A stretch of 64,000 nt of DNA from Actinomycetota bacterium (GTDB lineage Bacteria; Actinomycetota; Actinomycetes; S36-B12; UBA5976). The translations under genes were made by a program, and so were the position numbers. The stretch lies in contig CANFOW010000001.1 of assembly GCA_947448865.1 (NCBI GenBank), forward strand, positions 4,845 to 68,844, given 5' to 3'. This document shows positions 766 to 20,560 of the stretch, piece after piece (the first letter of the stretch is position 1; the number at the start of each line of letters is the position of its first letter). Under the pieces are notes generated by a model. The model saw nothing but the letters and a program-made list of their open reading frames with translations. It did no database searches and was not told where the DNA came from.

Positions 766-940
766 TGCCCGATTTCATTGGCTCATTGGTCCGCAGGGAG
801 TGCCGAAACCACAAGACAACCAAAACACCTTCAAGAAATAATCCGAAAACCGTTGTTGTCGGTTGCAGTTTGTGGCAGTGTGCCTAGCAATGTGTGACAC
901 GCATCACCGCTGGGGTGGTGCCAAACGAAAGGGTCGCCAA

Positions 941-2533: not shown

Positions 2534-2545
2534 AAGTTAAACAAC

Positions 2546-2586
2546 CGAATAGGGGTGTGAGGCAATATGTCTCACACCCCTATTCG
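2546..2586 (+). terminator. Perfect 16-bp stem / 9-nt loop hairpin after the permease gene
   Basis: CGAATAGGGGTGTGAG (2546-2561) pairs base for base with CTCACACCCCTATTCG (2571-2586). It starts 13 nt after the stop codon. No clear U-tract follows (ACTTTA), so its terminator strength is uncertain. Confidence 0.5.
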
Positions 2587-2603
2587 ACTTTAGGAGAGAC
2601 ATC

Positions 2604-3641
2604 ATGAGCGACGACATTTGTACTTGGGCACCACAGGAAGATGCTGATCCAGCAACATTTGCTTACACATTTGGTGGACAGCAACCTGTTGTATCGGTAA
2701 AGCCAGGAACGGTTATTGACTCATGGTCGTTTGACTGCTTTGGCGGACGCGTGCGGTCGATATCAGACATGTCCACACAGGTATGCGACCCGCGTTACCT
2801 GAATCCGCAGACTGGACCTTTTTATGTTGAAGGCGCCGAACCTGGCGACACCCTCGCGGTGCACTTTGTGTCAATCGAACCGCGCTACACCTGGGGTGTG
2901 AGTACGACAGTTCCATTCTTTGGGTCGCTCACATCAACCATTACAACGGCAACCCTGCAACAACCATTGGATGAGCGCACGTGGATTTACGAACTAGATC
3001 TTGAGCAGCGCTTGGTGCATTACGAAGCACGCGATTCCAAGTTCACTGCTGCTCTTCCACTAGATCCCATGCATGGAACAGTCGGTGTAGCGCCGGGCTT
3101 AAGCGAAGTGCGCTCGTCACTCACGCCCGGAGATTGGGGCGGCAACATGGACACACCTGAAATGCGAGCTGGCGTGACGTGCTACCTCAACGTGAACGTT
3201 GAAGGCGCACTGTTCTCATTCGGAGATGGTCACGCACGTCAAGGCGAAGGAGAAACATGTGGCGTTGCAGTCGAATGTGCAATGGACACTGTGTTGATTT
3301 TGGATTTGATTAAAAACACCGGTACCCCATGGCCTCGCATTGAATCCGATACTCACATCATGACAACGGGTTCAACTAAACCTCTCGAAGACGCATTTCG
3401 GGTTGCTCATTCTCAAATGGTGCATTGGGTCAGCGATGTTACAGGCCAATCAACTTTGGACAGCTACCAGTTCGTGTCGCAGGTCGCTCAAACACCAGTT
3501 GCAAACGTTGTCGACACGAATTACACAATGGTGGCGAAAGTCGCAAAGGAACATCTGGGAGAGGTCACCATCATGAACGGAATGCATGCGAAAATGCGAG
3601 CACGAGCTGCTTCATGGCGTGCTCAGACTGGGAGAAAGTAA
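2604..3641 (+). CDS. Acetamidase/formamidase-family amidohydrolase
   Basis: Carries the family signature region WGGNMDTPEMRAGVTCYLNVNVEGALFSFGDGHARQGEGETCGVAVECAMD. GGAGAG SD lies upstream of the ATG at 2604. Confidence 0.8.
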   Translation: MSDDICTWAPQEDADPATFAYTFGGQQPVVSVKPGTVIDSWSFDCFGGRVRSISDMSTQVCDPRYLNPQTGPFYVEGAEPGDTLAVHFVSIEPRYTWGVSTTVPFFGSLTSTITTATLQQPLDERTWIYELDLEQRLVHYEARDSKFTAALPLDPMHGTVGVAPGLSEVRSSLTPGDWGGNMDTPEMRAGVTCYLNVNVEGALFSFGDGHARQGEGETCGVAVECAMDTVLILDLIKNTGTPWPRIESDTHIMTTGSTKPLEDAFRVAHSQMVHWVSDVTGQSTLDSYQFVSQVAQTPVANVVDTNYTMVAKVAKEHLGEVTIMNGMHAKMRARAASWRAQTGRK

Positions 3642-4075
3642 TGCCACGTGTTGAACGAATGGAAATTGATCTCGCACTTGCATTAGCAATGATTGAAGCT
3701 GCAACTGCAAAAGCCCGCGAAATAAACGCGCCTATGTCGATTGCCATTCTCGATGCTGGCGCAAACTTACTTGCCTTCCATCGCATGGATGGCGCTGAAC
3801 TTGCTGGTCCAAACTTAGCTATCGACAAGGCGTACACATCAGTTACCAATCGCATCGAGACTGGAGACCTCAAGTCCCGCGTTGCCCCAGACGGTGACTT
3901 GCCTGGCATGTTCGCGAATGGCAACGGACGCTACATTGCATTTGCCGGCGGTATCCCTTGCTGGGATGGCGACCGTGTCGTTGGCGCTATCGGCGTTAGC
4001 GGCGGATCGTGGGACGAAGACCAAGTATGTGCACAAGCAAGTATCACTGTGTTTGAAGCAGCGGCTCGCGCATGA
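3641..4075 (+). CDS. GlcG/DUF336 (PduO C-terminal-domain-like) putative heme/cofactor-binding protein
   Basis: Motifs AILDAGANLLAFHRMDGA, AIDKAYTS and GAIGVSGG..DEDQ. The start ATG shares one base with the upstream stop (TAATG). The track's longer ORF (3425) overlaps the formamidase gene in another frame. Confidence 0.8.
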   Translation: MPRVERMEIDLALALAMIEAATAKAREINAPMSIAILDAGANLLAFHRMDGAELAGPNLAIDKAYTSVTNRIETGDLKSRVAPDGDLPGMFANGNGRYIAFAGGIPCWDGDRVVGAIGVSGGSWDEDQVCAQASITVFEAAARA

Positions 4076-6300
4076 GTGAGGTCATTGGGCGTTTTCGTTT
4101 TATGAACGAACAGCGAGTGAATCTCGATGGGTTCGCTACGCCTGATGCAAATCTTGGACTCATAGCTTTCGATTCACCACACGATCCGCAACCATCACTG
4201 ACATTGCACAACGGCGTTGTCATTGAGATGGATGGGAAAACAAGCGACGACTTTGACACGATTGATCAATTCATTGCTCTGCATGGTTTGGATTTAGCAA
4301 TTGCAGAAGAAGCCATGGCAATCGATAGTCTGCGCTTTGCTCGCGATCTTGTTGACATGAATGTGTCGCGTGCCTCGCTTGTACGTCTGGCTGCTGGAAT
4401 GACTCCCGCAAAGCTTGCTCAGGTGTTGTCACAGCTGAATGCTGCTGAACTCGTTATCGCTATGACGAAGATGCGTGCCCGTAGTACTCCGAGCAACCAA
4501 GCACACGTGACGAATCGTTCCGATGATCCGTTACTACTTGCAGCCGATGCAGCAACTGCGGCGGCCTTTGGCTTCCGTGAAATCGAAACCACAGTTCCTG
4601 TCCTCGGTGATGCGCCATCAAACGCAGTAGCAGTCTCTATAGGTGCGGCAGTCGGTTCGCCAGGAATGCTCGTGCAATGTTCAGTCGAAGAAGCAACAGA
4701 ACTCGCACTGGGTATGCGCGGCTTAGTGTCTTATGCCGAAACCGTGTCACTGTATGGAACCGAGCAAATCTTTGTTGATGGTGATGACACTCCATGGTCC
4801 AAAGCATTTCTGACCAGTGCATATGCATCTCGCGGAATCAAAATGCGCGTGACATCTGGTGGTGGCTCGGAAGCATTAATGGGTGGCTCCGAAAAATGCA
4901 GCATGTTTTATCTCGAGGCACGTTGTGTATCACTGGCTCGCGCAATGGGAGCACAAGGCGTGCAAAACGGTGGCATTGACGCTGCATCTGTTGCTGGGTC
5001 GGTTCCCGGTGGCGTGCGATCACTGATGGCAGAAAATGTCATGGTCATGTTGCGCAATCTTGAAGCCTGTACGGGCAATGATGCCTTGATGAGCGAGTCT
5101 GAAGTACGTCGCACATCGCGCACACATCCAATTTTTATTGCGGGTTCGGATTTTATTTGCAGCGGCTTTGGATCAATTCAGCGCTACGACAACATGTTTG
5201 GTCCGAGTAACTGGAACTCCGAAGACATTGATGACTTTCTGGCGATGCAGCGTGACTGGGGTGTTGATGCGGGATTACGCACTGCAACCGAACGGGATGT
5301 AGCAGCGCTTCGTCGTCGAGCCACCGAAGCAGTCACAGCCGTGTACTCGTGGCTTGGGCTTGGGGATTTTTCTTCGGAATGGGCTGAGCAAGCAATTGAC
5401 GCAGCTGGTTCAAAAGATGTGCCCGATGCGGACCTTATGTTGCCATTGAGTGCTTCTCGCACAATCGTGGATACCGATGTCACAATGCTCGATGTCATCG
5501 CAGCACTGGCTGAAAATGGTTTCGACATTGAAGCAGAACGTTGTCTGGACATGTTGAAGGCACGTGTGCAAGGTGATTACTTGCAAACTGCGGCAATCTT
5601 TGATGAAAGCATGAATGTGTTATCGCTCATCACCGATCCGAACACATACGCAGGACCCGGCACCGGTTACCGACCATCTCCTGAACGCCAAGAAGTTATT
5701 GACACGATTCGTCAACAACAATCCGTCAGTGACATTCGTGCCGAGCAACACTCGTATGCAACGCACAACATTGTGGCAACAGGAACGGCGCACATCAGTC
5801 ATGATCCACGCGATGTTGTGATTGGTGTCTCCCCTGCCACTGGTAAAGACATCTGGCGCACTCTGTCTGGACTCAGCGTTGCTGAGGTCCTGCATGAATT
5901 TATGGCAGGGCTTGAAGAAGAAGGATGTATCGGTCGAATTGTGCGCATTAATGACACTGTCGACTTAGGAATGATTGGACTCACAGCCGCGCGCATGTCT
6001 GGTTCTGGAATCAGCATCGGTCTGCAAGCGAAAGGTACTGCGCTCATCCACCGACGCGATCTTGCACCGCTTGCAAACCTTGAGTTGTATTCGGTTGCAC
6101 CGTCTCTTAATCGAGAGCTATATCGCCAAATGGGAATCAATGCCGGACGCCATGCAAAGGGTGCAACACCCGAACCAATGCGTAACCCGTATTCCGATGA
6201 AGCCATTGAAGCTCGCTATCACACGAAGGTCGTTGGACTTGTCGCTATCGAACGTGATTGCTCAAGCGACACCGCACCAGAAACTATGGAGGTGCGCTAG
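4072..6300 (+). CDS. Coenzyme-B12-dependent diol/glycerol dehydratase, large (alpha) and medium (beta) subunits fused in one 742-aa polypeptide
   Basis: Residues 1 to ~555 are collinear with PduC/GldA as I recall it (SNQAHVTN, FREIETTV, EEATELALGM, GDDTPWSK, MFYLEARC, QGVQNG, TGNDA, GSDFICSG, YDNMFGPSN, GDYLQTAA). The C-terminal ~190 aa match PduD (RDVVIGVSPATG, SGSGISIGLQAKGTALIH, LANLELY). ATGA overlap with the upstream gene. Confidence 0.9.
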   Translation: MSEVIGRFRFMNEQRVNLDGFATPDANLGLIAFDSPHDPQPSLTLHNGVVIEMDGKTSDDFDTIDQFIALHGLDLAIAEEAMAIDSLRFARDLVDMNVSRASLVRLAAGMTPAKLAQVLSQLNAAELVIAMTKMRARSTPSNQAHVTNRSDDPLLLAADAATAAAFGFREIETTVPVLGDAPSNAVAVSIGAAVGSPGMLVQCSVEEATELALGMRGLVSYAETVSLYGTEQIFVDGDDTPWSKAFLTSAYASRGIKMRVTSGGGSEALMGGSEKCSMFYLEARCVSLARAMGAQGVQNGGIDAASVAGSVPGGVRSLMAENVMVMLRNLEACTGNDALMSESEVRRTSRTHPIFIAGSDFICSGFGSIQRYDNMFGPSNWNSEDIDDFLAMQRDWGVDAGLRTATERDVAALRRRATEAVTAVYSWLGLGDFSSEWAEQAIDAAGSKDVPDADLMLPLSASRTIVDTDVTMLDVIAALAENGFDIEAERCLDMLKARVQGDYLQTAAIFDESMNVLSLITDPNTYAGPGTGYRPSPERQEVIDTIRQQQSVSDIRAEQHSYATHNIVATGTAHISHDPRDVVIGVSPATGKDIWRTLSGLSVAEVLHEFMAGLEEEGCIGRIVRINDTVDLGMIGLTAARMSGSGISIGLQAKGTALIHRRDLAPLANLELYSVAPSLNRELYRQMGINAGRHAKGATPEPMRNPYSDEAIEARYHTKVVGLVAIERDCSSDTAPETMEVR

Positions 6301-6659
6301 TGCCACAAGGATTTTCTGGAAAAGATTCCAATGAAGTATCAGTTGATGCAATTCGCAAAGGTGAAGTCACTATTGATGATGTGCGCATTCATCCAGACAC
6401 ACTCGAACATCAGGCAACTGTTGCTGGCGAACATGGGAATGCTCAACTAGCAGCGAACTTCCGACGAGCTGCGGAACTGACTCGCATGACTGATGAATAC
6501 GTGTTGTCTCTGTATGACGCCTTGCGACCAGGCAGATCCACTCATGACACGTTGCTTGAGTACGCCCGCGACCTTGAAGCAGCCGGAGCGCCGTTAAATG
6601 CAGAACTGTTCCGACAAGCAGCTTCTGCCTACCAGCGCCGCGGATTAACTGCACAATAG
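6300..6659 (+). CDS. pduE: Diol/glycerol dehydratase small (gamma) subunit
   Basis: DDVRIHPDTLEHQA...NFRRAAELT...LYDALRPGRST...LEYARDLE matches the PduE core. GTG at 6300 overlaps the upstream TAG (TAGTG), with GGAGG at 6288-6292. The track start at 6258 lies inside the alpha-beta gene. Confidence 0.85.
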   Translation: MPQGFSGKDSNEVSVDAIRKGEVTIDDVRIHPDTLEHQATVAGEHGNAQLAANFRRAAELTRMTDEYVLSLYDALRPGRSTHDTLLEYARDLEAAGAPLNAELFRQAASAYQRRGLTAQ

Positions 6660-6663
6660 CCAT

Positions 6664-8295
6664 ATGACTGTTATCGCCGGTGTCGATATCGGCAACTCCA
6701 CTACGGAAATTGTGCTGAGCATTGACGGTCAACCACGCGCCTGGGATCGACGCCCAACCCGTGGACACAAAGGATCACTGGCAAGTGTGCAAGCAGCTGC
6801 CGCACTGCTGCGAGCCGTCGAACGCACGAGTGGACTAAACGCCGATGTTGTGGTTGTTGCACCATGGCAACCTGTCACAAGTGACACTGCAACTATTCAT
6901 GAAGCACCGCCTTTCACTGGTCGTTTTGCCATCATTGATTGCGCGAGTCACAGTGTCGTCGGAAATTCGCATGCAATCGGTGTGCCTTGGCTCGTAACAG
7001 AGCCTGCAACACCGGAAAGTGATGTCATCGCGCTTGTTCCATCCGCAATGGACTTTGCGACAGCTGCTAATACTTTGACGAGCGCGCACGATAATGGCGT
7101 ACGCATTGTTGGAGTGGCAGTTGAAAACGATGAAGCGGTATTAATTTCGGCGCGAGTTACGTTTAACGCCCCCATTGTGGATCGCATTGCTATTTCAGAC
7201 TTAGCTTCGGCTACTCAGATATTTTTAGAAGTGCGTCCCGCTGGTTCTGGCGTGACTACCGCAACAGATGTGTGGGCACTCAGTTCGGCTTTTAATGCGG
7301 CTGATCAGGAACGGGATTACTTGGCGCACATTGCTCGCTGGGTATACGGGGAACGCGCCGTCGTTCTTGCTGCGTTTCCTGAAAGCAACGCACTTCCCAT
7401 ACAACCTGAAGTCGCTCGCGTCCATACACACGACGGAGGTTGGCAGGAACTTTTTGGCCTTGTCGATAACCAATTGCACGTAAACGCAGTTGATGCGATT
7501 GCGCTTCCTGATCACGGCGAAAACACAGTGAGCGATTTGTGGGCGGTTGACGTCACGGCAAGTTTGCGCAGCCGTGGAATCCGAACCCGTTCTCACTCAC
7601 GAACCATTGCGGTAGCAACGTTGGCCGACTCACCTGCAGTTCCAAGTCAAAACCTTGCAGAAATATTTGGAGTACCCGTTCGAACTGTTCACTCCGAAGC
7701 CTCAGCTGCCGCACAAGGCGCTCGCACTACTCCGGGTATTTCGCAGAATGCAGTCATCATCGACATTGGTGGCGGCACAATCGACTTAATAGGCGATGCT
7801 CCACTGGTCGCAGCAGGTGCGGGCGACTTACTGACAGCCGCTGTGGCATTCGCGATTGATGTGCCACGAGGCGCAGCCGACTGGATTAAGCGCGGACCTG
7901 CCCAACGAGTCGAGGCACCAACTGTTGTCCTCACCGAAGATGGGGCAAAAACCTTTGTTGACCAACCCATCCCAGCACCACTGACTGGCTCGCTGGTTGC
8001 CCAAGGGCCAAGTGGCTTCCTATCTTTTGGAAGTACGTTGTCGCCAGCCGAATGGCGCATCGCTCGGCAAGGTCTCAAGTCATCAGTGCTTGCAGCCAAC
8101 GTGCACAGACTTATTGCGAGCACACAGTTAACCCAACCCGTTGACGTGATTGTTGTTGGTGGGCCAGCTGCCGACGATGAACTCATCCCACTGCTCAGTC
8201 AATTACCGAGTCTTGGCAATGTTGGTCGGGGTAATGTGGCAGGCGTACTAGGTCATCGCTATGCAGTGGCATTTGGTTTGACCCTGAGCATCTGA
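6664..8295 (+). CDS. Diol dehydratase reactivase (reactivating factor) large alpha subunit
   Basis: IAGVDIGNSTTE N-terminus, IIDIGGGTIDLIG, AGAGDLLT, VVGGPAADDE and GRGNVAGVLGHRYAVAFGL are collinear with PduG/DdrA. The protein is 543 aa versus ~610 in enteric homologues. Confidence 0.85.
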   Translation: MTVIAGVDIGNSTTEIVLSIDGQPRAWDRRPTRGHKGSLASVQAAAALLRAVERTSGLNADVVVVAPWQPVTSDTATIHEAPPFTGRFAIIDCASHSVVGNSHAIGVPWLVTEPATPESDVIALVPSAMDFATAANTLTSAHDNGVRIVGVAVENDEAVLISARVTFNAPIVDRIAISDLASATQIFLEVRPAGSGVTTATDVWALSSAFNAADQERDYLAHIARWVYGERAVVLAAFPESNALPIQPEVARVHTHDGGWQELFGLVDNQLHVNAVDAIALPDHGENTVSDLWAVDVTASLRSRGIRTRSHSRTIAVATLADSPAVPSQNLAEIFGVPVRTVHSEASAAAQGARTTPGISQNAVIIDIGGGTIDLIGDAPLVAAGAGDLLTAAVAFAIDVPRGAADWIKRGPAQRVEAPTVVLTEDGAKTFVDQPIPAPLTGSLVAQGPSGFLSFGSTLSPAEWRIARQGLKSSVLAANVHRLIASTQLTQPVDVIVVGGPAADDELIPLLSQLPSLGNVGRGNVAGVLGHRYAVAFGLTLSI

Positions 8296-8306
8296 ATCGA
8301 GGAATT

Positions 8307-9905
8307 ATGTCGACAACTGTGTGGCGAAATGGATCCGTGTGGATTAGCGCAGGACAAAGCACGCATGCACTTGCAGCTCGCGATGGCGTCATCGTGGCAC
8401 ATGGCGATGATGCACTCGCACTCATCGACCAAGCACATGACGTGATTGACCTAGATGGCAAGACTCTCGGTCCTGGCTTCGGAGATGGCCACGCACACCC
8501 TGTGTTCGGTGGAATTGAAACTTTGTTTGCGCCCGTGCGAGGACATGACACTCTGGAACATTTACTCGCGGCAGTAAAAAAGTGGGCAGACGAGAATCCC
8601 GATGCAGAATGGGTACGCGGCGAAGGGTACGACCCCAGCTTGGCGCCCCGTGGCGAGTTTGACGCGAAGTGGTTAGACGACATCGTCCCAGATCGTCCCG
8701 TTGTTTTACGCGGAATGGATTACCACACAGCATGGGTTAACACTGCGGCGTTAGAGCGAGCAGGAATTACCGGAAGCACGCCGCAACCTATTGATGGCGA
8801 CATCGCAATGCGTCCCGACGGTACTCCGATGGGAACGCTTCGTGAATGGGGTGCGTGGGGAATGGTGTACGACTTACTCCCGCCGCTAAGTAAAGAACAA
8901 CAAATCATTGCAGTTCAAGCGGCCTCTGCTGCCTTTGCTAGTTGCGGTGTGACGTGGGCGCAGGATGCGTGGGTTTCACCTGAGACGTTGGATGCGTGGC
9001 TTGCAGGTGCTCACGCAGGTGTGCTGACATTCCGCGCAAACCTGGCATGGCTTGCAGAACCCGAAGGTAAATGGCGCGATGCATTTCCCACTTTCAGCGA
9101 ATTCAAAGCTTGCGTTGATCGCGAAGCTCCCGAGTTGCTCACAGGTGGCACCATCAAGTTTTTCGCCGACGGTGTACTTGAAGGTGGCACTGCGGCAGTT
9201 CTCGAACCCTACTGTGACTGCCCTACCTCACACGGAATTCCAAACTGGCGTCGAGAAGAGCTCATTGAAGCTGTCGCGGAATGTGTTGCACTCGGTTTCC
9301 AGCCTCACATTCACGCAATCGGTGATGCGGGTGTGCGCAATGCGCTCGACGCATTCGAAAACGCCATTGCAATCCACGGAACTGCTAACAACCCGATCAT
9401 GGCGCACTGCCAACTTGTTGATGAGCAAGACATGGATCGGTATCGCGAACTCGGTGTGATTGCGAACTTCGAACCGTTGTGGGCTCAGTTAGAAGCCGAG
9501 CAAACTGTTTTGACGATCCCACGTTTGGGCCAAGAACGTGCTGACCGGCAATACCCGATTGCTACCCTGTTGCGTTCTGGTGCAAAAGTTTCGTTTGGCT
9601 CCGACTGGCCAGTGACTAGCCCCGTTCCTATGCAAGGAATCGGTATTGCAGTCACGCGTACCACAGATCATGGTGTTGGACCGTGGGTCCCGAGCGAGTG
9701 CCTGACTCTTGATGAAGCGCTCACCGCCTATACATATGGAGTTGCCGTACAAGCAGGTGAAACCCAGGCCTGGGGAGACCTCGCCATTGGCAAACGCGCT
9801 GATGTCGTGTTGTTTGATACTGACATTCATTCCGTTACGCCATTTGATTTGCGTAAGGTTGGCGTTTTAGGCACGTGGCTTGGTGGCAAACGGGTCTTCG
9901 GTTAG
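8307..9905 (+). CDS. YtcJ-like metal-dependent amidohydrolase (Amidohydro_3 type)
   Basis: GFGDGHAHPVFGG metal-binding HxH motif, HIHAIGD and a C-terminal GSDWPV block, with typical length. Confidence 0.75.
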   Translation: MSTTVWRNGSVWISAGQSTHALAARDGVIVAHGDDALALIDQAHDVIDLDGKTLGPGFGDGHAHPVFGGIETLFAPVRGHDTLEHLLAAVKKWADENPDAEWVRGEGYDPSLAPRGEFDAKWLDDIVPDRPVVLRGMDYHTAWVNTAALERAGITGSTPQPIDGDIAMRPDGTPMGTLREWGAWGMVYDLLPPLSKEQQIIAVQAASAAFASCGVTWAQDAWVSPETLDAWLAGAHAGVLTFRANLAWLAEPEGKWRDAFPTFSEFKACVDREAPELLTGGTIKFFADGVLEGGTAAVLEPYCDCPTSHGIPNWRREELIEAVAECVALGFQPHIHAIGDAGVRNALDAFENAIAIHGTANNPIMAHCQLVDEQDMDRYRELGVIANFEPLWAQLEAEQTVLTIPRLGQERADRQYPIATLLRSGAKVSFGSDWPVTSPVPMQGIGIAVTRTTDHGVGPWVPSECLTLDEALTAYTYGVAVQAGETQAWGDLAIGKRADVVLFDTDIHSVTPFDLRKVGVLGTWLGGKRVFG

Positions 9906-9920
9906 ACCAGAATCAGCATT

Positions 9921-10604: not shown

Positions 10605-12271
10605 GTGAGCAGGACATTGCAGTTCATGGTGCACGTGCCGGCGACTTTGTGCGTCTTGGCGATACGCATCTTGTTGTCCGAGTTGAAGCAGATGATCGCC
10701 AACGCGGGAATGAACTTCAAATTGGTTTTGGCAAGAACGCTCGTGACGGCATTGGCATGCAATCTATTCGCCCAAGTAAATCGTGTGATGTTGTCATTAC
10801 CAACGTGCTCGTGATTGATGCAGTACTTGGAATTCGAGTCACAAGTATCGGCATTAACGAAGGTCGAATTAGCGCCATTGGACGTAGCGGAAACCCAGAC
10901 ACGATGGACGACATCGATGTCGTAGTCGGAAGTGGCACCGTCATCATCCCGGGCGAGGGACTCATCGCAACAGCGGGCGGAATTGATTCGCATGTTCATG
11001 CAATGGCACCTCGGGTCTGCGACGCAGCGCTCTCGAGCGGTGTGACAACGCTGATTGCCCAGGAGTTTGGGCCTTTTTGGGGCGTCGGAGTTGGGTCCAA
11101 ATGGGCACTTGGGCATGGGCATAAACAATTTGCAGCCTGGCCATTAAACGTCGGCATCCTCGGTCGAGGAGCTGGTTCAACAACTGATCCGCTTTATGAA
11201 GCACTCGAGGGTGGTGTCTGCGGATTCAAAATCCACGAAGACACTGGCGCGCATCCTCGCACGCTTGATACGACGTTGAGTTTCGCAGACGAACATGACG
11301 TCGCGGTGGCATTACATACTGATGGTCTTAACGAGATGATGCACGTTGAAGACACCATTGCTGCGATTGCTGGTCGTGCTGTGCATGCATATCACGTTGA
11401 AGGTTGTGGTGGAGGCCATGCGCCGGATGTTCTTCGACTCGCAGGACACAACAACATTTTGGCTAGTTCAACAAATCCGACATTAGCTTTCGGTATTAAT
11501 GCGGCTGACGAACATGTGGCGATGATTATTTCTGCGCATGGAATGAATCCTGAACTCCCTAGTGACATCGAGCTTGCGCGTCGTCGAGTGCGCAATGCCA
11601 CGATGGCGGCTGAAAATAAATTGCATGACATCGGCGTGATTCCTGTGACTTCCTCTGATGCACTCGGCATGGGTCGCGCAGATGACACATGGCGTAAGAC
11701 TTTTGCGATGGCCAGCATGTTTGCCGATCGCGCAATCCTCGATGGAACTGTTGCGCCTGATGATGTTGTTATCGAAAACGAGCGCGTACTTCGACACATT
11801 GCAAAAATTACAATCAACCCCGCTCTGGTACATGGCCTGAGCCACGAAGTAGGTTCACTGCAAGTCGGATTGCTCGCTGACATTGTGTTGTGGCCGTATC
11901 GCTCATTCGCCAGTAAGCCCAACATGGTCATCAAGTCTGGAATTCCGGCATGGGGTGTTGTTGGCGATCCAGGATCAACAGTTGCCAATGCACAACCTTT
12001 AACTATTAGCGCGCAGTTCGGCGCATTTGGAGCAAGCGCTGCTGAACTCGGCGTTCACTTCACTAACGCTATGAGCACCACGACTGTCGAAGGTAGACGC
12101 AGCGTGCCAGTCAAGAACACTCGCACAGTTCGCGGCACAGACATGGTGCGCCACGGAGTCCTTGGCACAATCGATGTCGACGTCCACGATTACACCGTGC
12201 GCTTCAATGGCGACATCGTCACATGTAACCCACTCAGCGAATCTCCACTAACCCGAAAGTATGTGTTGTAA
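10601..12271 (+). CDS. ureC: Urease alpha-subunit homologue; metal ligands conserved, active-site flap divergent
   Basis: GGIDSHVH (HxH), GFKIHEDTG (carbamylated-Lys position), ALHTDGLNE, HAYHVEGCGGGHAPD, SSTNPT and TSSDALGMGR (Asp ligand). The canonical MVCHHL flap motif reads IISAHGM. ATGA overlap with ureAB. Confidence 0.85.
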   Translation: MSEQDIAVHGARAGDFVRLGDTHLVVRVEADDRQRGNELQIGFGKNARDGIGMQSIRPSKSCDVVITNVLVIDAVLGIRVTSIGINEGRISAIGRSGNPDTMDDIDVVVGSGTVIIPGEGLIATAGGIDSHVHAMAPRVCDAALSSGVTTLIAQEFGPFWGVGVGSKWALGHGHKQFAAWPLNVGILGRGAGSTTDPLYEALEGGVCGFKIHEDTGAHPRTLDTTLSFADEHDVAVALHTDGLNEMMHVEDTIAAIAGRAVHAYHVEGCGGGHAPDVLRLAGHNNILASSTNPTLAFGINAADEHVAMIISAHGMNPELPSDIELARRRVRNATMAAENKLHDIGVIPVTSSDALGMGRADDTWRKTFAMASMFADRAILDGTVAPDDVVIENERVLRHIAKITINPALVHGLSHEVGSLQVGLLADIVLWPYRSFASKPNMVIKSGIPAWGVVGDPGSTVANAQPLTISAQFGAFGASAAELGVHFTNAMSTTTVEGRRSVPVKNTRTVRGTDMVRHGVLGTIDVDVHDYTVRFNGDIVTCNPLSESPLTRKYVL

Positions 12272-13267
12272 ATGTCCTATCGTGTACACGCTCAAGGAAC
12301 TGGTGCTCAACGCGGCGCCCAACTCGGCGAACAGTTCATTGAGGCACTGCCTCGAGCGTGGGATCGCTGGGTTGCGCACTTTGAAACTAACAACGTTGAT
12401 CCGCATGATTTAGCTGACCGACTCACTCGAGTAGGTGCCTGGGACACTGCCCGCAAGCACCTTCCCGACCTCGTGGACGAACTTGAGGCAATGGCGCACG
12501 CAGCCGGAATGCCGTGGCACAAGGTGGCCGCACTGTCGATGCTCGATGAGTCGTGGGCGTTAACGGGTGGAATGGCGTGTACCTCTATTGCAATCACACG
12601 TGACGGTGTTCGCGTTGCGGGACAAAACATGGATTTACCCGCCTGGACTGACACCATGCAAACCGTTCTCAATGTGAAAGATGCCAACGGACTCGGGGTG
12701 GTTGCAGCCACTTACCCTGGCTCGCTTGCGACATGTGGAGCGAACTCACAAGGTGTGGTTGTCATAGTTAATGCACTCGACCTGGCAACGGACATGAACG
12801 GTATGCCAGTGGATTTCGTAACCCGAGGTGCTTTGCATCATGACACAGCCGCCGATGCCATTGCCTTTATTCGCAGCATTCCGAATGCTGTCGGCCAGAC
12901 CTACACCGTGCTCGATGCACACGACCTATTTATGGTCGAAGCTGCGGCCGATGGCGTCATCGACGTACCGTTACACGAGGTTGTTTCAGTGCACACCAAC
13001 CACGCATTCACACGCGACCATGACATTTCAGAAAGTTCAATCACCCGCCTGACCGCAATTGAATCAACTCGAAGCTCGTTAACGTCTAGAGAGGCTCTCG
13101 AAGCATCTCTGACAAACAAAGAATCTGGCGTATGCCAAGTCCTGGGTCGATTCACTGCGGACATGTACTCGTTTATGGGCGTTCTTGGCGATTCACTTGA
13201 GCGTCGGGTCTGGGTAAATGTGTCACCTGCCACAGGTGGGCTATTCGAGGAAGTTTCATTTCTCTAA
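12272..13267 (+). CDS. Peptidase C45 / acyl-CoA:6-aminopenicillanic-acid acyltransferase-like Ntn hydrolase
   Basis: GTGAQRGAQLGEQF N-terminus and a candidate nucleophile Cys103 in GGMACTSI. This is the position of the autoproteolytic Cys in the family as I recall it. The gene starts directly after the ureC stop. Confidence 0.65.
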   Translation: MSYRVHAQGTGAQRGAQLGEQFIEALPRAWDRWVAHFETNNVDPHDLADRLTRVGAWDTARKHLPDLVDELEAMAHAAGMPWHKVAALSMLDESWALTGGMACTSIAITRDGVRVAGQNMDLPAWTDTMQTVLNVKDANGLGVVAATYPGSLATCGANSQGVVVIVNALDLATDMNGMPVDFVTRGALHHDTAADAIAFIRSIPNAVGQTYTVLDAHDLFMVEAAADGVIDVPLHEVVSVHTNHAFTRDHDISESSITRLTAIESTRSSLTSREALEASLTNKESGVCQVLGRFTADMYSFMGVLGDSLERRVWVNVSPATGGLFEEVSFL

Positions 13268-13284
13268 GGTCATAGGCTCTAGCC

Positions 13285-14535
13285 ATGGCAAATACTGATG
13301 TTCAGGTCACCGTCATTGGTGGCGGCGCTGTTGGTCGAGCAACTGCATGGCAGCTCGCAAAAGAAGGAATCAAGGTTCGAGTCGTTGACTCCGGTGAACC
13401 GCGTTTTGGAACTTCAATGGCAAATGCCGGTTGGGTTGCTCCAAGTCACATCATTCCTTTTGCGGCCCCAGGCATGGTGTCGATGGGTGTTAAAGAGCTT
13501 GTAAAGCGTTCAGGTGCCTTCGGGGTGTCACCTGCTGCGGGACCATCGCTGGCATCATGGACTTTGAAATTTATGCGTGCCTGCACGATGGAACACGTTG
13601 ATCGCAATGCGCCCGCACTTAACGAGTTGCTCCAACGCAGCATGGGCCTTTTTGATGATCTCATTGTGAACCATGGTTTGCGACGCACCGAAAAAGCGTT
13701 GTACTACATTTTTTCCTCAGATCGTGCCGAGGAACTTGCTCATGAAGAACATGACCTTTTTACAGATCATGGTGTTGCAACAAAACTTGTTGACGTTGAA
13801 TCTGCCCGCAGCGATCTTCCTATCCTTAAAGACAGTGTTAAAGCAGTACTCGAACTCACAACGGACTACGGAATTGATCCACGTCGCTTTGTGAACTTAC
13901 TCGGCGAACTCAACACCGGTTCGGGCGTGGAATACCGCACTGGCGAAACTGTTAAGAATGTTGTTCATCGTGCTGACTTAGTTCATGTCACAACGGATAA
14001 AGATTCCTGGACAAGTGATTACGTTGTTCTTGCTGCTGGCACATGGTCGGGTGAAATTGCGAAAATGGTTGGCTCGTCCTTGAGCATCATTGCAGCTAAG
14101 GGCCATTCTGTGACTCTGCCCAACATGACCAACATGCCCGATCGCCCCATGATGCTTGCCGAGCAACGTTTAGCGACTAACCCCGAAGCAAACGGCTACC
14201 GCATGAGTACTGGCTTTGCTTTAACGTCAAATAACGATCGCTCAATTAATCACAAAGCAATCGACAAGTTGTACGCAACCGCGAGTCAGGTTCTTCATTT
14301 GCCTGAGCGTGCGGCAAACATTGAGCCGTGGACCGGACTACGACCAGCCAGTCCCGATGGCCTGCCTTACATTGGACCGCTGGCCAACGCCCCACGAGTG
14401 ATTACCGCAACTGGTCACGGCATGATCGGCAACATGTTGGCACTTGGCACTGGCGCCGTAGTAGCCGACATGGTGCAAGAACGTCCGATATCAGGAGAAA
14501 TGCTTAAGTTCTCACCTTCTCGACCAAGTGCATAG
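13285..14535 (+). CDS. FAD-dependent oxidoreductase (DAO / D-amino-acid dehydrogenase-like)
   Basis: N-terminal Rossmann motif VTVIGGGAVGRATAWQLAKEGIKVRVVD and a C-terminal GHGMIG motif. Confidence 0.75.
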   Translation: MANTDVQVTVIGGGAVGRATAWQLAKEGIKVRVVDSGEPRFGTSMANAGWVAPSHIIPFAAPGMVSMGVKELVKRSGAFGVSPAAGPSLASWTLKFMRACTMEHVDRNAPALNELLQRSMGLFDDLIVNHGLRRTEKALYYIFSSDRAEELAHEEHDLFTDHGVATKLVDVESARSDLPILKDSVKAVLELTTDYGIDPRRFVNLLGELNTGSGVEYRTGETVKNVVHRADLVHVTTDKDSWTSDYVVLAAGTWSGEIAKMVGSSLSIIAAKGHSVTLPNMTNMPDRPMMLAEQRLATNPEANGYRMSTGFALTSNNDRSINHKAIDKLYATASQVLHLPERAANIEPWTGLRPASPDGLPYIGPLANAPRVITATGHGMIGNMLALGTGAVVADMVQERPISGEMLKFSPSRPSA

Positions 14536-14564
14536 GGCATTATTGCTTTATCGCCCCACACCTG

Positions 14565-15650
14565 ATGCAAAGGATTTCTGTGACTAATTCGTTCCTGAAC
14601 ATTGCCAACGTCAGCAAAGCATTTACGACCCCCGAGGGTGGCACAGTCCACGCTCTTGATGATGTTTCGCTAGACATTCGAGAAGGCGAATTCTTCGTCA
14701 TGCTTGGCCCATCAGGCTGCGGTAAGACAACGCTGCTTCGTTCTATTGCTGGACTTGAATACCCAGACAGCGGTGTCATCACACTTGATGGCCAGCGCAT
14801 TGATGATTTGCCTGCATACAGCCGACCAGTTAACACTGTGTTCCAGTCATACGCACTGTTTCCACACATGACTGTTGGGCAGAACATCGCGTTTGGTTTG
14901 GAAATGGAAGGCATAAATAAAACCGAAACTGCCAAGCGAGTTTCCGATGCTCTTGATCAGGTATCACTTTCTGGATTAGACAAACGTAAGCCCAGCCAAC
15001 TTTCTGGTGGTCAGCAACAACGCGTTGCGCTGGCTCGTGCATTAGCTAAGCAGCCGAAAGTTCTGCTACTCGACGAGCCACTGAGTGCATTGGATTTGAA
15101 ACTTCGTCGTGGCATGCAAATTGAACTCAAGCGACTTCAGCAACAAACCGGAATCACATTCGTTTTCGTCACCCATGATCAAGAAGAAGCAATGTCGATG
15201 GGTGATCGCATTGCGGTATTTAAAGATGGAAAAATTGTTCAACTTGATACACCGCAAGAAATTTATCGTCGCCCAGTAAATAGTTTCGTCGCAGACTTCA
15301 TCGGTGAAACAAACTTGCTCGATGGAATTGCTACTGCTGATGGCGTACAAGTTCCTGGTGGCGGATTCATCGCCCGGTCCGTTATCGCATCCGATTGTGT
15401 AGTTCCCGCGTCTGGCTCAGTCACGATTGCGATTCGACCTGAAGACTTGAAGATAAGTGATGGCTCAGGTTCATTAAAGGGAATTGTCCGCGATGTGATC
15501 TTTACTGGTGAAACGGTGCGAGTACACATTGACCTTGGAACCACTGAAGTGGTCGCCCACTTACCGTCTTACGGAGTTCGCGTTCCTGACCGCGGTGAAA
15601 CCGTAAGCTTCTCGCCACTAGATCAGTCCGCTCGCACGGTGGCCTCATGA
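14565..15650 (+). CDS. potA: PotA-type ABC transporter ATPase (spermidine/putrescine-import family)
   Basis: Walker A GPSGCGKTT, signature LSGGQQQRVALARAL, Walker B LLLDEPLSALD and a C-terminal TOBE-like region. An alternative GTG start at 14580 has a better SD (AAGGA). Confidence 0.85.
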   Translation: MQRISVTNSFLNIANVSKAFTTPEGGTVHALDDVSLDIREGEFFVMLGPSGCGKTTLLRSIAGLEYPDSGVITLDGQRIDDLPAYSRPVNTVFQSYALFPHMTVGQNIAFGLEMEGINKTETAKRVSDALDQVSLSGLDKRKPSQLSGGQQQRVALARALAKQPKVLLLDEPLSALDLKLRRGMQIELKRLQQQTGITFVFVTHDQEEAMSMGDRIAVFKDGKIVQLDTPQEIYRRPVNSFVADFIGETNLLDGIATADGVQVPGGGFIARSVIASDCVVPASGSVTIAIRPEDLKISDGSGSLKGIVRDVIFTGETVRVHIDLGTTEVVAHLPSYGVRVPDRGETVSFSPLDQSARTVAS

Positions 15651-16549
15651 GCAAAATAGTTCGTGGTCGCCCCGGACAAACCAGTCCCTGGCTAGCAATT
15701 CCAACAATTGCTTACCTATTCCTGACTATTGGTATTCCACTTTTCATCACGGTTGTCTACTCGTTCTTGCAACGGGCAAAAATTGGAATGGGCGTCACCT
15801 GGCACTTCTCGCCTAAGGCGTACAAGGACCTCTTTATCCTAGAAAACCTTGACGGCACAACAACTTTTGATACCCGTTACGTCAAAGTGCTCTGGCATTC
15901 ATTCCAATACTCAGCAGTAACTACTGTGGCAACCGTAGTGCTCTCAATTCCTATTGCGATGTGGATTGCAACGCGAAACGAAAGCACTCGCAATATTTTG
16001 GTCGCCGCAGTCACGTTGCCATTTTGGATTAGCATCCTGATCAGAACATATGGTCTGCGTCAGATTATTGATGACAATGGTCCCATCGGTTGGATTGCTC
16101 ACAAGCTGGGTTACGAGAATTTCCACATCATTTACACACCAATTGCGACAATGATTGGTCTGACCTACGTATTTTTACCGTTCATGATTCTGCCGATTTA
16201 CGCTAGCGCAGAACGATTTGATTTCAGACTCGCAGAAGCTGCCTATGATCTCGGGGCAAAGCGATGGACCGTTTTCCGTCGCATTGTGTTTCCATCGATT
16301 CGCCCGGGCGTGATTGCTGGAATTGCCTTGGTGTTTATTCCGGCACTGGGTTCGTTCCTGCAGTCCGACATGCTCGGTGGTGGCAAGACAAACATGATTG
16401 CCAACGTGATTGCGCTGAACTTCACGCAAGCGCGTAACTGGCCATTTGGTTGCGCACTGTCAGTTCTGCTGATTTTGCTCACGCTTCTCTTGGTGCAAGC
16501 TATCCGATTGATATCCAAGAAGTTCGGAGATCAGGTGAGCTTGGTATGA
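15647..16549 (+). CDS. potB: PotB-type ABC transporter permease
   Basis: Six-TM permease with an EAAxDLGA-type loop (AEAAYDLGAKRWTVFRRIVFP). ATGA overlap with potA. Confidence 0.8.
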   Translation: MSKIVRGRPGQTSPWLAIPTIAYLFLTIGIPLFITVVYSFLQRAKIGMGVTWHFSPKAYKDLFILENLDGTTTFDTRYVKVLWHSFQYSAVTTVATVVLSIPIAMWIATRNESTRNILVAAVTLPFWISILIRTYGLRQIIDDNGPIGWIAHKLGYENFHIIYTPIATMIGLTYVFLPFMILPIYASAERFDFRLAEAAYDLGAKRWTVFRRIVFPSIRPGVIAGIALVFIPALGSFLQSDMLGGGKTNMIANVIALNFTQARNWPFGCALSVLLILLTLLLVQAIRLISKKFGDQVSLV

Positions 16550-17349
16550 GTTCAGTAAAGACGCGCAAGCTTGTCAATCTGAGAAACTTCCCGACATTTC
16601 GTCCGGTGTCTTGGTTTGTGTTGTTTTTCTTGTACATCCCATTGGTGCACGTCATTGTGTACTCGTTTAACTCAAGTCGTATCGCAACAATTTGGGAGCA
16701 CTTCTCAACGAAGTGGTACTTCAAAACCTTCCACAATGACGACATGCAACGCGCACTCAAAAACTCTCTCAAGATTGGTTTCGCTGCCACAATCTTGTCG
16801 ACGGTCTTGGCTGTTCTTGCGGCGCTTGGCTTAGTTCGGATGCGTCGGCTCGGTTCAGCATTTGCGTGGAGCCTCATTGGTGCACCGCTGATCATCGCTG
16901 AAATCGTGTTGGCTGTGGGAACACTTGGATTCTTCATGGCAGTGCACATTCCACTGGGAATCTTTGGCATGGTGCTCGCTCACACCGCATTTTGTATTCC
17001 ATTTGCACTTTTGCCTATCCGCGCACGTCTTGGGCAACTTGATGTGGCGCCATTTGAAGCGGCGGCTGACCTCGGGGCAAATGAACGACAAATTTTGCGC
17101 CGGATTACGTTGCCGTTATTGTCGCCAGCCATTGTTTCTGGGGCTTTATTGGCATTTGCGATCTCGATTGATGACTTTATTACGTCATTTTTCATCTCCG
17201 GACCAGGGTCAACCACCCTTCCGGTTTACATTTTCGGCATGATCCGTTCGACAGTGACACCAGAAGTGGACGCAATATCCACACTGTTGCTGCTGTTCTC
17301 TGGCATTGTGTTGATTAGTTCCTACGTTCTCAACCGAAGAAGGAGATAA
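16546..17349 (+). CDS. potC: PotC-type ABC transporter permease
   Basis: FEAAADLGANERQILRRITLP loop. ATG at 16546 forms an ATGA overlap with the potB stop. The track start at 16450 lies inside potB. Confidence 0.8.
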   Translation: MSSVKTRKLVNLRNFPTFRPVSWFVLFFLYIPLVHVIVYSFNSSRIATIWEHFSTKWYFKTFHNDDMQRALKNSLKIGFAATILSTVLAVLAALGLVRMRRLGSAFAWSLIGAPLIIAEIVLAVGTLGFFMAVHIPLGIFGMVLAHTAFCIPFALLPIRARLGQLDVAPFEAAADLGANERQILRRITLPLLSPAIVSGALLAFAISIDDFITSFFISGPGSTTLPVYIFGMIRSTVTPEVDAISTLLLLFSGIVLISSYVLNRRRR

Positions 17350-17352
17350 ACA

Positions 17353-18477
17353 ATGGGAAACATCAAGAGGCGCCGTGCCTCCTACGCCGCTGCAATCGCT
17401 GCGGCAACAGCACTGTTATTGACCGCATGTGGAGGTTCGTCCACTTCCGGTACACCAACTGCTGCAGACACATCCGCCGCTTTCCCAACATCGGGTTCCG
17501 GTGAAGTTCACCTTTACAACTGGACCGATTACATCGACCCTGAACAGCTCACAGCGTTCACAGCCGAGACTGGCATCAAGGTAATCCTTGACACGTTCGA
17601 CAGCAATGAAACACTGCTTGCGAAACTGCAATCAGGTGCCACAGGCTACGACGTTGTTGTTCCGTCTGACTACATGGTTGCGCAAATGATTGAACTGAAT
17701 CTTCTTCAGAAGGTTGAGCCAGCAACATTCCCGAACGGTAAGAACATCAAGCCAAACTTGCTCAATGATATTTATTGGGATGCAGGACGTCACTACTCTG
17801 CTCCATGGATGTACGGCACAACTGGTATCGCATGTAACACCACTGCAGAACCAAAGTGCGCAAACATCAAGTCATGGCACGATTACTTCACCGCTGGTCT
17901 TCCAAAGATGGATTCACTCAAGGACCAAGTTGAAGTTGTTTCTGCTGCATTACGTGCAACAGGTGTGGCTCCTGCTGATTTGTGTACCACTGATAAGTCG
18001 AAGTATGCAGCAGCAGCTGACCTACTTAAGGGCTTCAAGCCTGCCGTGATCGATTCCGACAGTGGTATCGAACGAGTTATTGCTGGTACCAGCAACGTGC
18101 GTCACGCCTGGAATGGATCAACTCACCGCATGAAGGATAAAGTTCCTGGCGTTGAATATATCTACCCATCAGAAGGTTTGAACCTTTGGGCAGACAACTT
18201 AGTTGTTCCCGTAGGCGCTCCAAACCTAGACAACGCAAAGATCTTCATCAACTGGATGATGGATCCTGCACACGCTGGCGCTGAAAGTAACTTCTCTGGT
18301 TACGACAACGGCATCACCGGTTCAGATGCGTTCATGAGCGACTCGTTGAAATCAGACCCAGCAGTTGTTGTGCCAGCTGATAAGACTGCGCTCATCTCTG
18401 CAGTTCCTCCATGTGGCCAGGACGCTCGCGACCTGTACACCCAGGTATTCACTACTTGGTTGGGCGAACAGAACTAA
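17353..18477 (+). CDS. potD: PotD/PotF-type polyamine-binding lipoprotein (copy 1)
   Basis: Lipobox LLTACGG, then the YNWTDYIDP and SGATGYDVVVPSDY motifs of the PotD/F family. Confidence 0.8.
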   Translation: MGNIKRRRASYAAAIAAATALLLTACGGSSTSGTPTAADTSAAFPTSGSGEVHLYNWTDYIDPEQLTAFTAETGIKVILDTFDSNETLLAKLQSGATGYDVVVPSDYMVAQMIELNLLQKVEPATFPNGKNIKPNLLNDIYWDAGRHYSAPWMYGTTGIACNTTAEPKCANIKSWHDYFTAGLPKMDSLKDQVEVVSAALRATGVAPADLCTTDKSKYAAAADLLKGFKPAVIDSDSGIERVIAGTSNVRHAWNGSTHRMKDKVPGVEYIYPSEGLNLWADNLVVPVGAPNLDNAKIFINWMMDPAHAGAESNFSGYDNGITGSDAFMSDSLKSDPAVVVPADKTALISAVPPCGQDARDLYTQVFTTWLGEQN

Positions 18478-18486
18478 TTTCGATAC

Positions 18487-18526
18487 AAAAGTGGAGCCTC
18501 ACCTCAGGGTGGGGCTCCACTTTTTT
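18487..18526 (+). terminator. Rho-independent terminator
   Basis: AAAAGTGGAGCCTCACC-TCA-GGGTGGGGCTCCAC is a GC-rich stem with one mismatch, followed by TTTTTT. It starts 10 nt after the potD stop. Confidence 0.75.
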
Positions 18527-18560
18527 GCCCTCAAGGCACACTGTGCTCCATAATCCTTAA

Positions 18561-20502: not shown

Positions 20503-20543
20503 GTGTGGAGTGTATCGAAGCAATCGAACTTGGTTTTGCATTA

Positions 20544-20560
20544 ATTCGACTTGTCCGAAT
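20544..20560. promoter_or_regulatory. Candidate LysR box (T-N11-A within ATTCG-N7-CGAAT dyad)
   Basis: ATTCGACTTGTCCGAAT lies in the 125-bp divergent region between the LysR gene and the ridA-like operon. Confidence 0.35.

Follow-up and report, generated by a model that had tools for sequence, protein, structure and literature searches.

A non-canonical urease homologue in a nested gene array of freshwater Nanopelagicales and its possible part in nitrogen scavenging

The 64,000-nucleotide (nt) stretch of actinobacterial DNA considered here (contig CANFOW010000001.1, positions 4,845 to 68,844; hereafter the window) carries an array of 14 genes, all on the + strand between positions 2604 and 18477, in which a two-gene urease homologue, ure(AB)C, stands between a B12-dependent dehydratase and a polyamine-type importer (Table 1). 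The genes belong to an uninterrupted + strand run from 863 to 19625 and are spaced by -1, -4, -1, +4, +11, +15, -4, 0, +17, +29, -4, -4 and +3 nt. Searches against Pfam and NCBIfam assign the products of the 5′ genes, in order, to FmdA_AmdA, HbpS/GlcG, a Dehydratase_LU+MU fusion, Dehydratase_SU, DDR and Amidohydro_3, and those of the 3′ genes to Urease_gamma+beta, Urease_alpha, AAT/C45, DAO, ABC_tran+TOBE_2, two BPD_transp_1 and SBP_bac_8. An earlier note on this DNA, made from the sequence alone, had delineated the same array; with its choice of start codons the listing of open reading frames (ORFs) reproduces its gene coordinates, strand and all 13 spacings exactly, and its family calls are all right.

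Table 1. Features of the gene array and its surroundings in the window.
Feature	Coordinates	Strand	Remarks
Divergent APC-type (amino acid-polyamine-organocation) permease	863-2533	+	Weak AA_permease match; assigned to the cassette by co-occurrence
Hairpin 3′ of the permease	2546-2586	+	19-bp; terminator or attenuator; -34.9 kcal/mol
FmdA-like acetamidase/formamidase-family amidase	2604-3641	+	PF03069, 82 bits
GlcG/HbpS-like (DUF336) protein	3641-4075	+	PF03928, 120 bits
Adenosylcobalamin-dependent diol/glycerol dehydratase, alpha-beta fused, 'Asp-type'	4072-6300	+	NF011979, 831 bits (cut-off 788)
Dehydratase gamma (small) subunit	6300-6659	+	PF02287, 116 bits
Reactivase alpha-like ATPase	6664-8295	+	PF08841 and PF18427
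YtcJ-type binuclear-metal amidohydrolase (Amh3)	8307-9905	+	PF07969, 325 bits
Fused urease gamma-beta, ure(AB)	9921-10604	+	NF009671 'bifunctional urease subunit gamma/beta', 255 bits (cut-off 243)
Non-canonical urease alpha (UreC)	10601-12271	+	Putative anchor gene; ligands and catalytic residues kept, pocket remodelled
C45-family Ntn (N-terminal nucleophile) hydrolase	12272-13267	+	NF040521, 144 bits (cut-off 85)
DAO-family FAD amine/amino-acid oxidoreductase	13285-14535	+	PF01266, 172 bits
PotA-type ATPase	14565-15650	+	TIGR01187 polyamine subfamily, 372 bits (cut-off 355.6)
PotB-like permease	15647-16549	+	PF00528
PotC-like permease	16546-17349	+	PF00528
PotD/PotF-family binding protein 1	17353-18477	+	SBP_bac_8
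Intrinsic terminator closing the array	18487-18526	+	13-bp GC-rich stem and TTTTTT; -30.9 kcal/mol
PotD/PotF-family binding protein 2	18561-19625	+	Beyond the terminator
LysR-type regulator	19600-20595	-	Divergent from RidA-DUF1028-M20; conserved in many, not all, orthologous loci
RidA, DUF1028, M20 amidohydrolase	20628-22890	+	Variable accessory module; in some architectures, absent in L015
PuuC-like aldehyde dehydrogenase, class-III aminotransferase, APC permease	24760-29112	+	Variable accessory module

The array is probably a single terminator-bounded transcription unit, as had been proposed: the genes lie on one strand with tight spacers, terminators flank them, and promoter- or terminator-like signals are not in excess between them. 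When the first 32 kb of the window are folded in sliding 50-nt segments, the two hairpins that flank the array, 3′ of the permease gene and 3′ of the first binding-protein gene, rank first and second, which bears out the claim that the only strong hairpins stand at its edges, and no fold inside the array falls below -23 kcal/mol. Promoter-like motifs inside the array are not enriched (9 against 16.5 expected from shuffles), nor are terminator-like motifs (23 against 20.5). Spacing alone is weak evidence of shared function, since neighbouring operons of this compact, streamlined genome likewise have short or overlapping spacers (e.g. 20628-24044). Orthologous loci carry an equivalent of the closing terminator 3′ of the last binding-protein gene. 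Likewise, 14 orthologous loci have a hairpin 3′ of the permease at an unchanged position; the stems differ between lineages and most are followed by a T-run, features that mark the hairpin as a permease terminator or attenuator; the idea that it is a regulatory RNA was dropped. In the lineage of the window, L011 and L065 only 18 nt, including the ribosome-binding site, separate this hairpin from the FmdA ATG; in other lineages (within L007-L075) the same spacer measures 50-130 nt. The former lineage thus has no room for a promoter 3′ of the hairpin, and transcription of the FmdA gene must read through it or begin upstream. An Rfam scan of the whole window returned one tRNA only and no cobalamin or guanidine riboswitch, so that neither riboswitch accounts for regulation.

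The linkage of dehydratase, urease homologue and transporter that the earlier note had drawn attention to recurs. The exact urease alpha protein is present on seven metagenome contigs with identical gene order, and a recurrence scan with one genome per species gave 47 loci, those nearest to the window being metagenome-assembled genomes (MAGs) of freshwater Actinomycetota, several of them named Candidatus Nanopelagicales. The dehydratase genes are contiguous with Amh3 and the urease pair in 32 loci, a number that includes about 8 that are the window organism itself or duplicate places; because so many loci repeat it, the linkage is not a one-off. The conserved order, as judged by tblastn synteny, is perm-FmdA-GlcG-DDalpha/beta-DDgamma-DDR-Amh3-UreAB-UreC-C45-DAO-PotABCD, where DD stands for the dehydratase and DDR for its reactivase, and identity across orthologous loci amounts to 76-91% for UreC, 47-72% for the reactivase and 51-94% for DAO. 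All recurrence of the full linkage falls within one order, the Nanopelagicales.

Related genomes share a common left flank (thrB-thrC-hom-lysA-argS-FCD regulator-CoA-transferase) and a common right flank (LysE-VanY-beta-lactamase-PnuC, at 29101-32037 in the window), and between them the array comes in nested versions: UreAB-UreC only (4 loci), UreAB-UreC-DAO (3 loci), Amh3-UreAB-UreC-DAO (1 locus), Amh3-UreAB-UreC-C45-DAO-PotABCD with or without RidA-DUF1028 and with no dehydratase genes (4 loci), and the full array (32 loci). The DAO gene is the first to join the urease pair in this series, and the nesting puts the urease pair at the core, as anchor, with the dehydratase cassette as outermost layer. 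Among the loci compared the permease gene at 863-2533 is gained or lost together with FmdA-GlcG-dehydratase-reactivase, and because of this strict co-occurrence the whole block can be regarded as a cassette with its own transporter; a dehydratase cassette without the right-hand module was found in none of the Nanopelagicales loci compared. The view of the earlier note that the array is one unit for one compound does not sit well with nested modules: the four loci of the fourth type keep everything from Amh3 to PotABCD without the cassette, and outside the order the dehydratase subfamily never adjoins a urease, nor the urease clade a dehydratase. As an aside on the left flank, L032 has a 969-amino-acid (aa) ORF (4768-7677, - strand) that covers arginyl-tRNA synthetase and diaminopimelate/ornithine decarboxylase domains; its two parts match separate stretches in L033, and the fusion may be a read-through or an assembly artefact.

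The anchor itself has all the domains of a urease (PF00547, PF00699 and PF00449 with PF01979). Its UreC is about 45% identical to solved ureases and passes the subfamily model NF009686 while failing the equivalog model TIGR01792 (543 against a cut-off of 680). Alignment to the Klebsiella aerogenes enzyme (1fwa_C) shows that the metal ligands H134, H136, K217 (the carbamylatable lysine), H246, H272 and D360 are kept, as are the catalytic residues H219, D221, H320 and R336. Around them much has changed. The loop GGGTGPAAGTHATTCTPG has become QEFGPFWGVGV-GS, with a 4-residue deletion at the site of Ala167; HEDWGAT reads HEDTGAH, EGAGGGH reads EGCGGGH and SSDSQAMGR reads SSDALGMGR; and the pocket substitutions comprise W222T, A276C, C319A, H321G, S361A, Q362L and A363G. 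Throughout the clade, down to 58% identity, these motif changes recur with little or no variation. In established urease structures the urea site is lined by the carbonyls of Ala167 and Ala363 and by the flap that bears Cys319 and His320. Since pocket and flap positions have changed while ligands and catalytic residues are kept, the substrate cavity appears to have been rebuilt around a retained catalytic machinery.

Canonical UreABC+UreDEFG systems, such as those of K. aerogenes and Sporosarcina pasteurii, share with the window pair the gamma, beta and alpha domains, the ligands and the catalytic residues; apart from the shorter Ala167 loop and the replaced W222, A276, C319, H321 and S361-A363, the window pair differs from them in its gamma-beta fusion and in having no UreG/DEF genes nearby. 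With at most 64 kb examined per genome, UreG adjoins 46 of 59 canonical urease loci and none of the 77 non-canonical ones, and the 64-kb window contains none; the UreG sequence used as query was validated only by its matches of 54-64% identity adjoining canonical ureases. A metagenome scan with P0068, meant as an independent lineage test, returned no close relative of the P0068 lineage; most of the loci that it gave were canonical gut ureases, which served as controls. A score below the equivalog cut-off, an altered pocket and no UreG nearby justify the cautious wording 'urease homologue' that had been chosen at the outset. The iron urease UreA2B2 of Helicobacter mustelae is another urease homologue that works without UreDEFG, and it is a close paralogue of canonical urease that hydrolyses urea. 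Nearer to the window pair are the ure(AB)C clusters of Streptomyces, which have the same two-gene architecture without accessory genes, match the same NF009671 and NF009686 models and are counted as ureases in surveys (PMC5489568); the literature searched held no separate function, pocket analysis or deiminase linkage for them. In one Nanopelagicales lineage of 61% identity a MeaB/ArgK-type G3E GTPase, a member of the UreG superfamily, is encoded directly upstream of UreAB (L009 8180-9139, L010 61-1020); it may act as an alternative metallochaperone or else go with the thiolase gene that precedes it.

Canonical ureases have urea transporters as neighbours, whereas the non-canonical clade keeps company with deiminase and polyamine genes in several lineages. 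A Kribbella locus (L042, UreC 58% identical) combines a Pot-type ATP-binding cassette (ABC) transporter, a class-III aminotransferase, alanine dehydrogenase and aldehyde dehydrogenases with two PAD_porph genes, which belong to the agmatine deiminase family. At 61% identity, PAD_porph lies directly downstream in L059, and L060 has a divergent TetR-OTCase-permease-PAD_porph-carbamate kinase cluster (OTCase, ornithine carbamoyltransferase), the classical agmatine deiminase operon; L147 (~61%) has TetR and PAD_porph upstream of UreC. Amh3 is found nearby in L009 (61%), and in L061/L062 (67%) the order is Amh3-UreAB-UreC-C45-PotABCD. A second non-canonical urease clade, also without UreG nearby, is found in Solirubrobacterales-type MAGs (L045, L047, L048, L050, L056, L057); its motifs are QDFGPVWNLG, HEDV-x-AG and EGVGGGH, and its neighbours include carbamate kinase (L047, L048, L056, L057), OTCase (L047, L057) and PAD_porph (L050). 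Only 2 of the 59 canonical loci have PAD_porph nearby (Fisher p ~7e-4, for lineages that are not fully independent). The window itself has no PAD_porph gene.

Deiminases convert guanidino groups to ureido groups, and the simplest reading of these contexts is that ure(AB)C would hydrolyse a mono-substituted urea by urease chemistry. The ureido/guanidino theme of the earlier note is thereby partly upheld: independent contexts of the urease clade point in that direction, but the one-compound unit of which it formed part is not supported. The proposed sequence of events, guanidino to ureido to amine with CO2 and NH3, would be the same as in the agmatine deiminase pathway (AguA+AguB, or AguA with putrescine carbamoyltransferase and carbamate kinase), with two differences: a urease-fold enzyme would replace AguB, and in the window array, which has no PAD_porph gene, the Amidohydro_3 enzyme sits at the adjacent position. 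The enzymes that normally cleave N-carbamoylputrescine are the CN-hydrolase AguB and putrescine carbamoyltransferase (PMC9397018).

The remaining genes of the right-hand module are less distinctive. All 24 orthologues of Amh3 compared share the metal-site residues HxH, K, H, H and D, and L009 and L061 are further lineages in which the gene accompanies the urease pair; the nucleophile of the C45 hydrolase, Cys103, is invariant in 25 orthologues, and the order UreC-C45-PotABCD is repeated in L061/L062. Among solved structures neither of the two, nor the FmdA-like amidase, has a characterised close relative; the nearest solved relatives of the DAO enzyme are glycine oxidases. The importer is of the polyamine type, as had been noted: its PotA passes the polyamine subfamily cut-off, and the best solved relatives of binding protein 1 are all polyamine binders. 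The ATG at 16546 that the earlier note had chosen for PotC (267 aa) fits the orthologues (272 aa in L007) better than the automatic calls on record, which are shortened to 201 aa (e.g. L001 16144-16749). Many orthologous loci, too, have a second binding-protein gene. Compared with PotABCD/PotFGHI and the Puu pathway, the window has a PotA of the polyamine subfamily, and its DAO enzyme and PuuC-like aldehyde dehydrogenase resemble PuuB and PuuC in family; unlike in those systems, the binding proteins score far below the PotD/PotF equivalog cut-offs (161-171 against 582-636), and the locus has no PuuA-type gamma-glutamyl ligase.

The dehydratase, too, keeps its ligands in an altered pocket. The domains of the large, medium and small subunits are all present (PF02286, PF02288 and PF02287), and alignment to 9vii_B, in Klebsiella pneumoniae numbering, shows that the Ca2+/substrate ligands Q142, H144, E171, E222, Q297 and D336 are kept. 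The pocket around C3 differs from that of the characterised Pdu/Dha enzymes: S302 is replaced by Asp and Q337 by Ala, both invariant in 11 orthologues. Ser301 of the classical enzyme is in contact with the C3-OH of glycerol in an inactivating conformer, and S301A and Q336A mutants are altered in inactivation and kinetics (PMC7674605). Among 1.84 billion cluster representatives searched, the Ser/Gln pocket of Pdu/Dha is found in 6 clusters, Ser/Ala in 21 and Asp with a small residue in about 34, and the fused alphaproteobacterial form (Mesorhizobium, Shinella, Bradyrhizobium and others) has Asp in all 119 of the relatives checked. To judge from these counts, the Asp/small-residue pattern defines a large, uncharacterised subfamily of fused dehydratases. 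The fused alpha-beta form is known from Mesorhizobium, Mycobacterium and Hyphomicrobium (Liu 2010, as cited in PMC7674605 and PMC4777399), and for the alphaproteobacterial representative a 'slightly different active site' and the missing reactivase have been remarked upon (PMC4777399; PMC7674605).

With the Pdu/Dha and fused dehydratases the window enzyme has in common the three domains and the Ca/substrate ligands, and with the latter also the alpha-beta fusion; its identity to the K. pneumoniae enzyme is ~55%, and to the alphaproteobacterial fused forms ~50%. Besides the S302D and Q337A exchanges, it differs from the Pdu/Dha systems in that no microcompartment, PduO/PduS or 1,3-propanediol genes accompany it, in having a reactivase alpha subunit only, in its C-N hydrolase neighbours and in belonging to an aerobic B12 auxotroph. 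The reactivase scores below the TIGR04491 cut-off (166 against 400) and is the fastest-evolving gene of the array; neither the ORF listing nor the domain search revealed a reactivase beta-subunit ORF in the array. The best solved relative of the FmdA-like amidase is 5ubu, an uncharacterised 'putative acetamidase/formamidase', and the permease has no informative NCBIfam or PDB relative. Cultured acI strains do not synthesise cobalamin and import it instead (PMC5301498), and some Planktophila strains salvage it (PMC12817590).

Outside the Nanopelagicales the Asp-type dehydratases keep other company. In Mesorhizobium (L063) the neighbours are a sugar-type ABC system and a short-chain dehydrogenase/reductase (SDR), in L145 a reactivase and an SDR, and in L146 an SDR. 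In Tepidamorphus gemmatus (L064, 12716-17559) an Asp/Ala-type fused dehydratase precedes an amidohydrolase of the isochorismatase family (its best matches, RutB and BiuH, both score below cut-off), a protein with a twin-arginine translocation signal and weak similarity to PotD, and a PotA-like ABC system; an SDR, permeases and inositol-type genes are also nearby. A urease adjoins the dehydratase in none of the four loci (L063, L064, L145, L146), and the representatives P0121, P0125 and P0123, on short or frameshifted contigs, have none either. Since these outside loci lack a urease, the dehydratase-urease linkage is confined to the Nanopelagicales. L064 still leaves room for a nitrogen-bearing diol as the substrate of the subfamily. 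The notion that Asp302 and Ala337 prove a cationic substrate was toned down: the alphaproteobacterial forms share the Asp, and some of them sit with a sugar-type ABC system and an SDR.

Downstream of the array the gene content varies among genomes. The variable modules comprise the LysR regulator, RidA-DUF1028-M20, a flavin-reductase/LysR-domain fusion, TetR, and the PuuC-like aldehyde dehydrogenase, class-III aminotransferase and APC permease. The last of these modules lies between the array and the conserved LysE-VanY genes (29101-30405), and had been put forward as a possible taker of the products of the array; the aldehyde dehydrogenase and the aminotransferase are there as described, and the third gene encodes an APC-type permease, not a second dehydrogenase. 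The fusion, downstream of RidA-DUF1028-M20, is a single ORF (22887-24044, + strand) that joins a flavin-reductase domain to a LysR substrate-binding domain without a helix-turn-helix. The right flank (29101-32037) reads LysE-VanY-(280-aa ORF)-tRNA-PnuC, with the tRNA gene at 31251-31323 (- strand). Further to the right, positions 33417-37019 (+ strand) encode a 1200-aa fused E2/E1 2-oxoglutarate dehydrogenase of the actinobacterial OdhA/Kgd type, and 38215-38973 (+ strand) a heliorhodopsin (PF18761, 327 bits), which fits a freshwater actinobacterial origin.

The explanation that we prefer, tentatively and with slightly more doubt than assurance, is that the array represents a co-transcribed, stepwise-assembled nitrogen-scavenging island of freshwater Nanopelagicales, in which the ure(AB)C anchor cleaves N-carbamoyl amines taken up through the Pot system and the B12 cassette is an add-on. 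The substrates in the following scheme, like co-transcription and the metal that the anchor would use, are what we infer from gene content and neighbourhoods. The PotABCD-type importer, with one or two binding proteins, would take up cationic compounds of the polyamine class, including N-capped ones. The urease paralogue would act on a mono-substituted urea such as N-carbamoylputrescine (R-NH-CO-NH2 + H2O -> R-NH-COO- + NH4+), and the resulting carbamate would decay to R-NH2 and CO2, so that the enzyme would fill the role of AguB. The Amidohydro_3 enzyme, the C45 hydrolase and the FmdA-like amidase may strip other amidino or acyl caps, and the DAO flavoenzyme may convert the freed amine to an imine or aldehyde and NH4+. 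The separately acquired permease-FmdA-GlcG-dehydratase-reactivase cassette would turn a vicinal diol or polyol, possibly an amino-diol, into an aldehyde with the help of imported B12. Several points weigh against this scheme. A catalytic core identical to that of urease fits plain urea hydrolysis equally well, and UreDEFG could lie elsewhere in the genomes, beyond the segments of up to 64 kb examined. Without a PAD_porph gene in the array of the window the source of the ureido substrate is left unexplained, and in L060 the putrescine carbamoyltransferase route already disposes of N-carbamoylputrescine, so that a hydrolase would be superfluous there. What is proposed for Amh3, C45, FmdA and DAO is generic, it is not evident where polyamine or ureide chemistry would call for the dehydratase, and the acI relatives are B12 auxotrophs (PMC5301498).

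It is also conceivable, though unlikely, that the array is made of ordinary parts: a true urease, with its accessory genes elsewhere or self-activating, and a plain glycerol/propanediol dehydratase, packed into a variable hot spot of a streamlined genome. The conservation of every urease ligand and catalytic residue and of the Ca/substrate ligands of the dehydratase would be accounted for, the NCBIfam subfamily models do name urease and propanediol/glycerol dehydratase, the Streptomyces surveys already cited treat ure(AB)C as urease, and the locus clearly is an insertion and deletion hot spot in a genome with tight spacing throughout. Yet a true urease would not be expected to have its urea pocket remodelled across the whole clade, loop deletion included, nor to lack UreG in every one of the non-canonical loci when most canonical loci have it, and the recurrent deiminase neighbourhood yields no urea. 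Likewise both C3-contact residues of the dehydratase are altered, and the nested order in which modules were gained speaks against random juxtaposition.

The model of the earlier note, in which the 14 genes form one pathway for a single imported compound with a ureido or amide group and a vicinal diol or amino-alcohol, dehydratase and hydrolases acting on the same carbon skeleton, appears quite unlikely. It draws strength from the co-directional, terminator-bounded genes free of internal signals, from the occurrence of the dehydratase cassette only with a complete right-hand module, from S302D and Q337A at the positions that contact the glycerol C3-OH (PMC7674605), which could suit a larger cationic substituent, and from Tepidamorphus, where an Asp/Ala-type dehydratase adjoins an amidohydrolase, a weakly PotD-like protein and a PotA-like ATPase. 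However, the cassette is missing from four loci that have the Amh3-Ure-C45-DAO-Pot module, and eight more keep nothing beyond the urease pair apart from DAO or Amh3 in some; a permease of its own comes with the cassette; the Asp-type dehydratases of Mesorhizobium, L145 and L146 sit with SDRs (in Mesorhizobium also with a sugar-type ABC system), not ureases; the urease clade elsewhere adjoins deiminases and never dehydratases; and there is no known candidate compound. Improbable, too, is the more ambitious combination in which ure(AB)C would bring a new activity to the urease family, as a self-maturing ureidohydrolase of N-substituted ureas (N-carbamoyl-polyamines), and the Asp-type dehydratase would be an amino-polyol dehydratase, the two cooperating in one operon of the most abundant freshwater bacterioplankton to mineralise a ureido or guanidino amino-diol from the dissolved organic nitrogen of lakes. 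It is hardly credible that the urease paralogue is a relic without catalytic activity, or that it serves in binding or regulation: the lack of accessory genes nearby would agree with it, but no ligand or catalytic residue has been lost between 91% and 58% identity, the motifs peculiar to the clade vary little or not at all, and the clade is very abundant in metagenomes.

Although every part of the array falls into a known family, two are uncharacterised variants with altered pockets, namely the ure(AB)C clade without accessory genes and the fused Asp-type dehydratase. The literature search found no description of the cluster, of a non-urea substrate for the urease paralogue or of the substrate of the Asp-type dehydratase, in agreement with the earlier note, which knew of no characterised pathway of this kind. 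Nanopelagicales (acI-type Actinobacteria) are the dominant bacterioplankton of lakes and feed on organic compounds rich in nitrogen, and in freshwater metagenomes the urease paralogue and the dehydratase both give thousands of matches. Should the paralogue prove not to be a urease, 'ureC' counts from lakes, and from soil Actinobacteria that carry ure(AB)C, would overstate ureolysis and at the same time miss a route of nitrogen from agmatine and N-carbamoyl-polyamines. An accessory-free enzyme of the urease fold with a remodelled pocket would be of interest for metal loading and substrate scope, and an Asp-type fused dehydratase in an aerobic B12 auxotroph would link a catabolic trait to cobalamin supplied by the community. 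Finally, the nested architectures serve as a natural experiment in the stepwise build-up of catabolic modules around an anchor enzyme.

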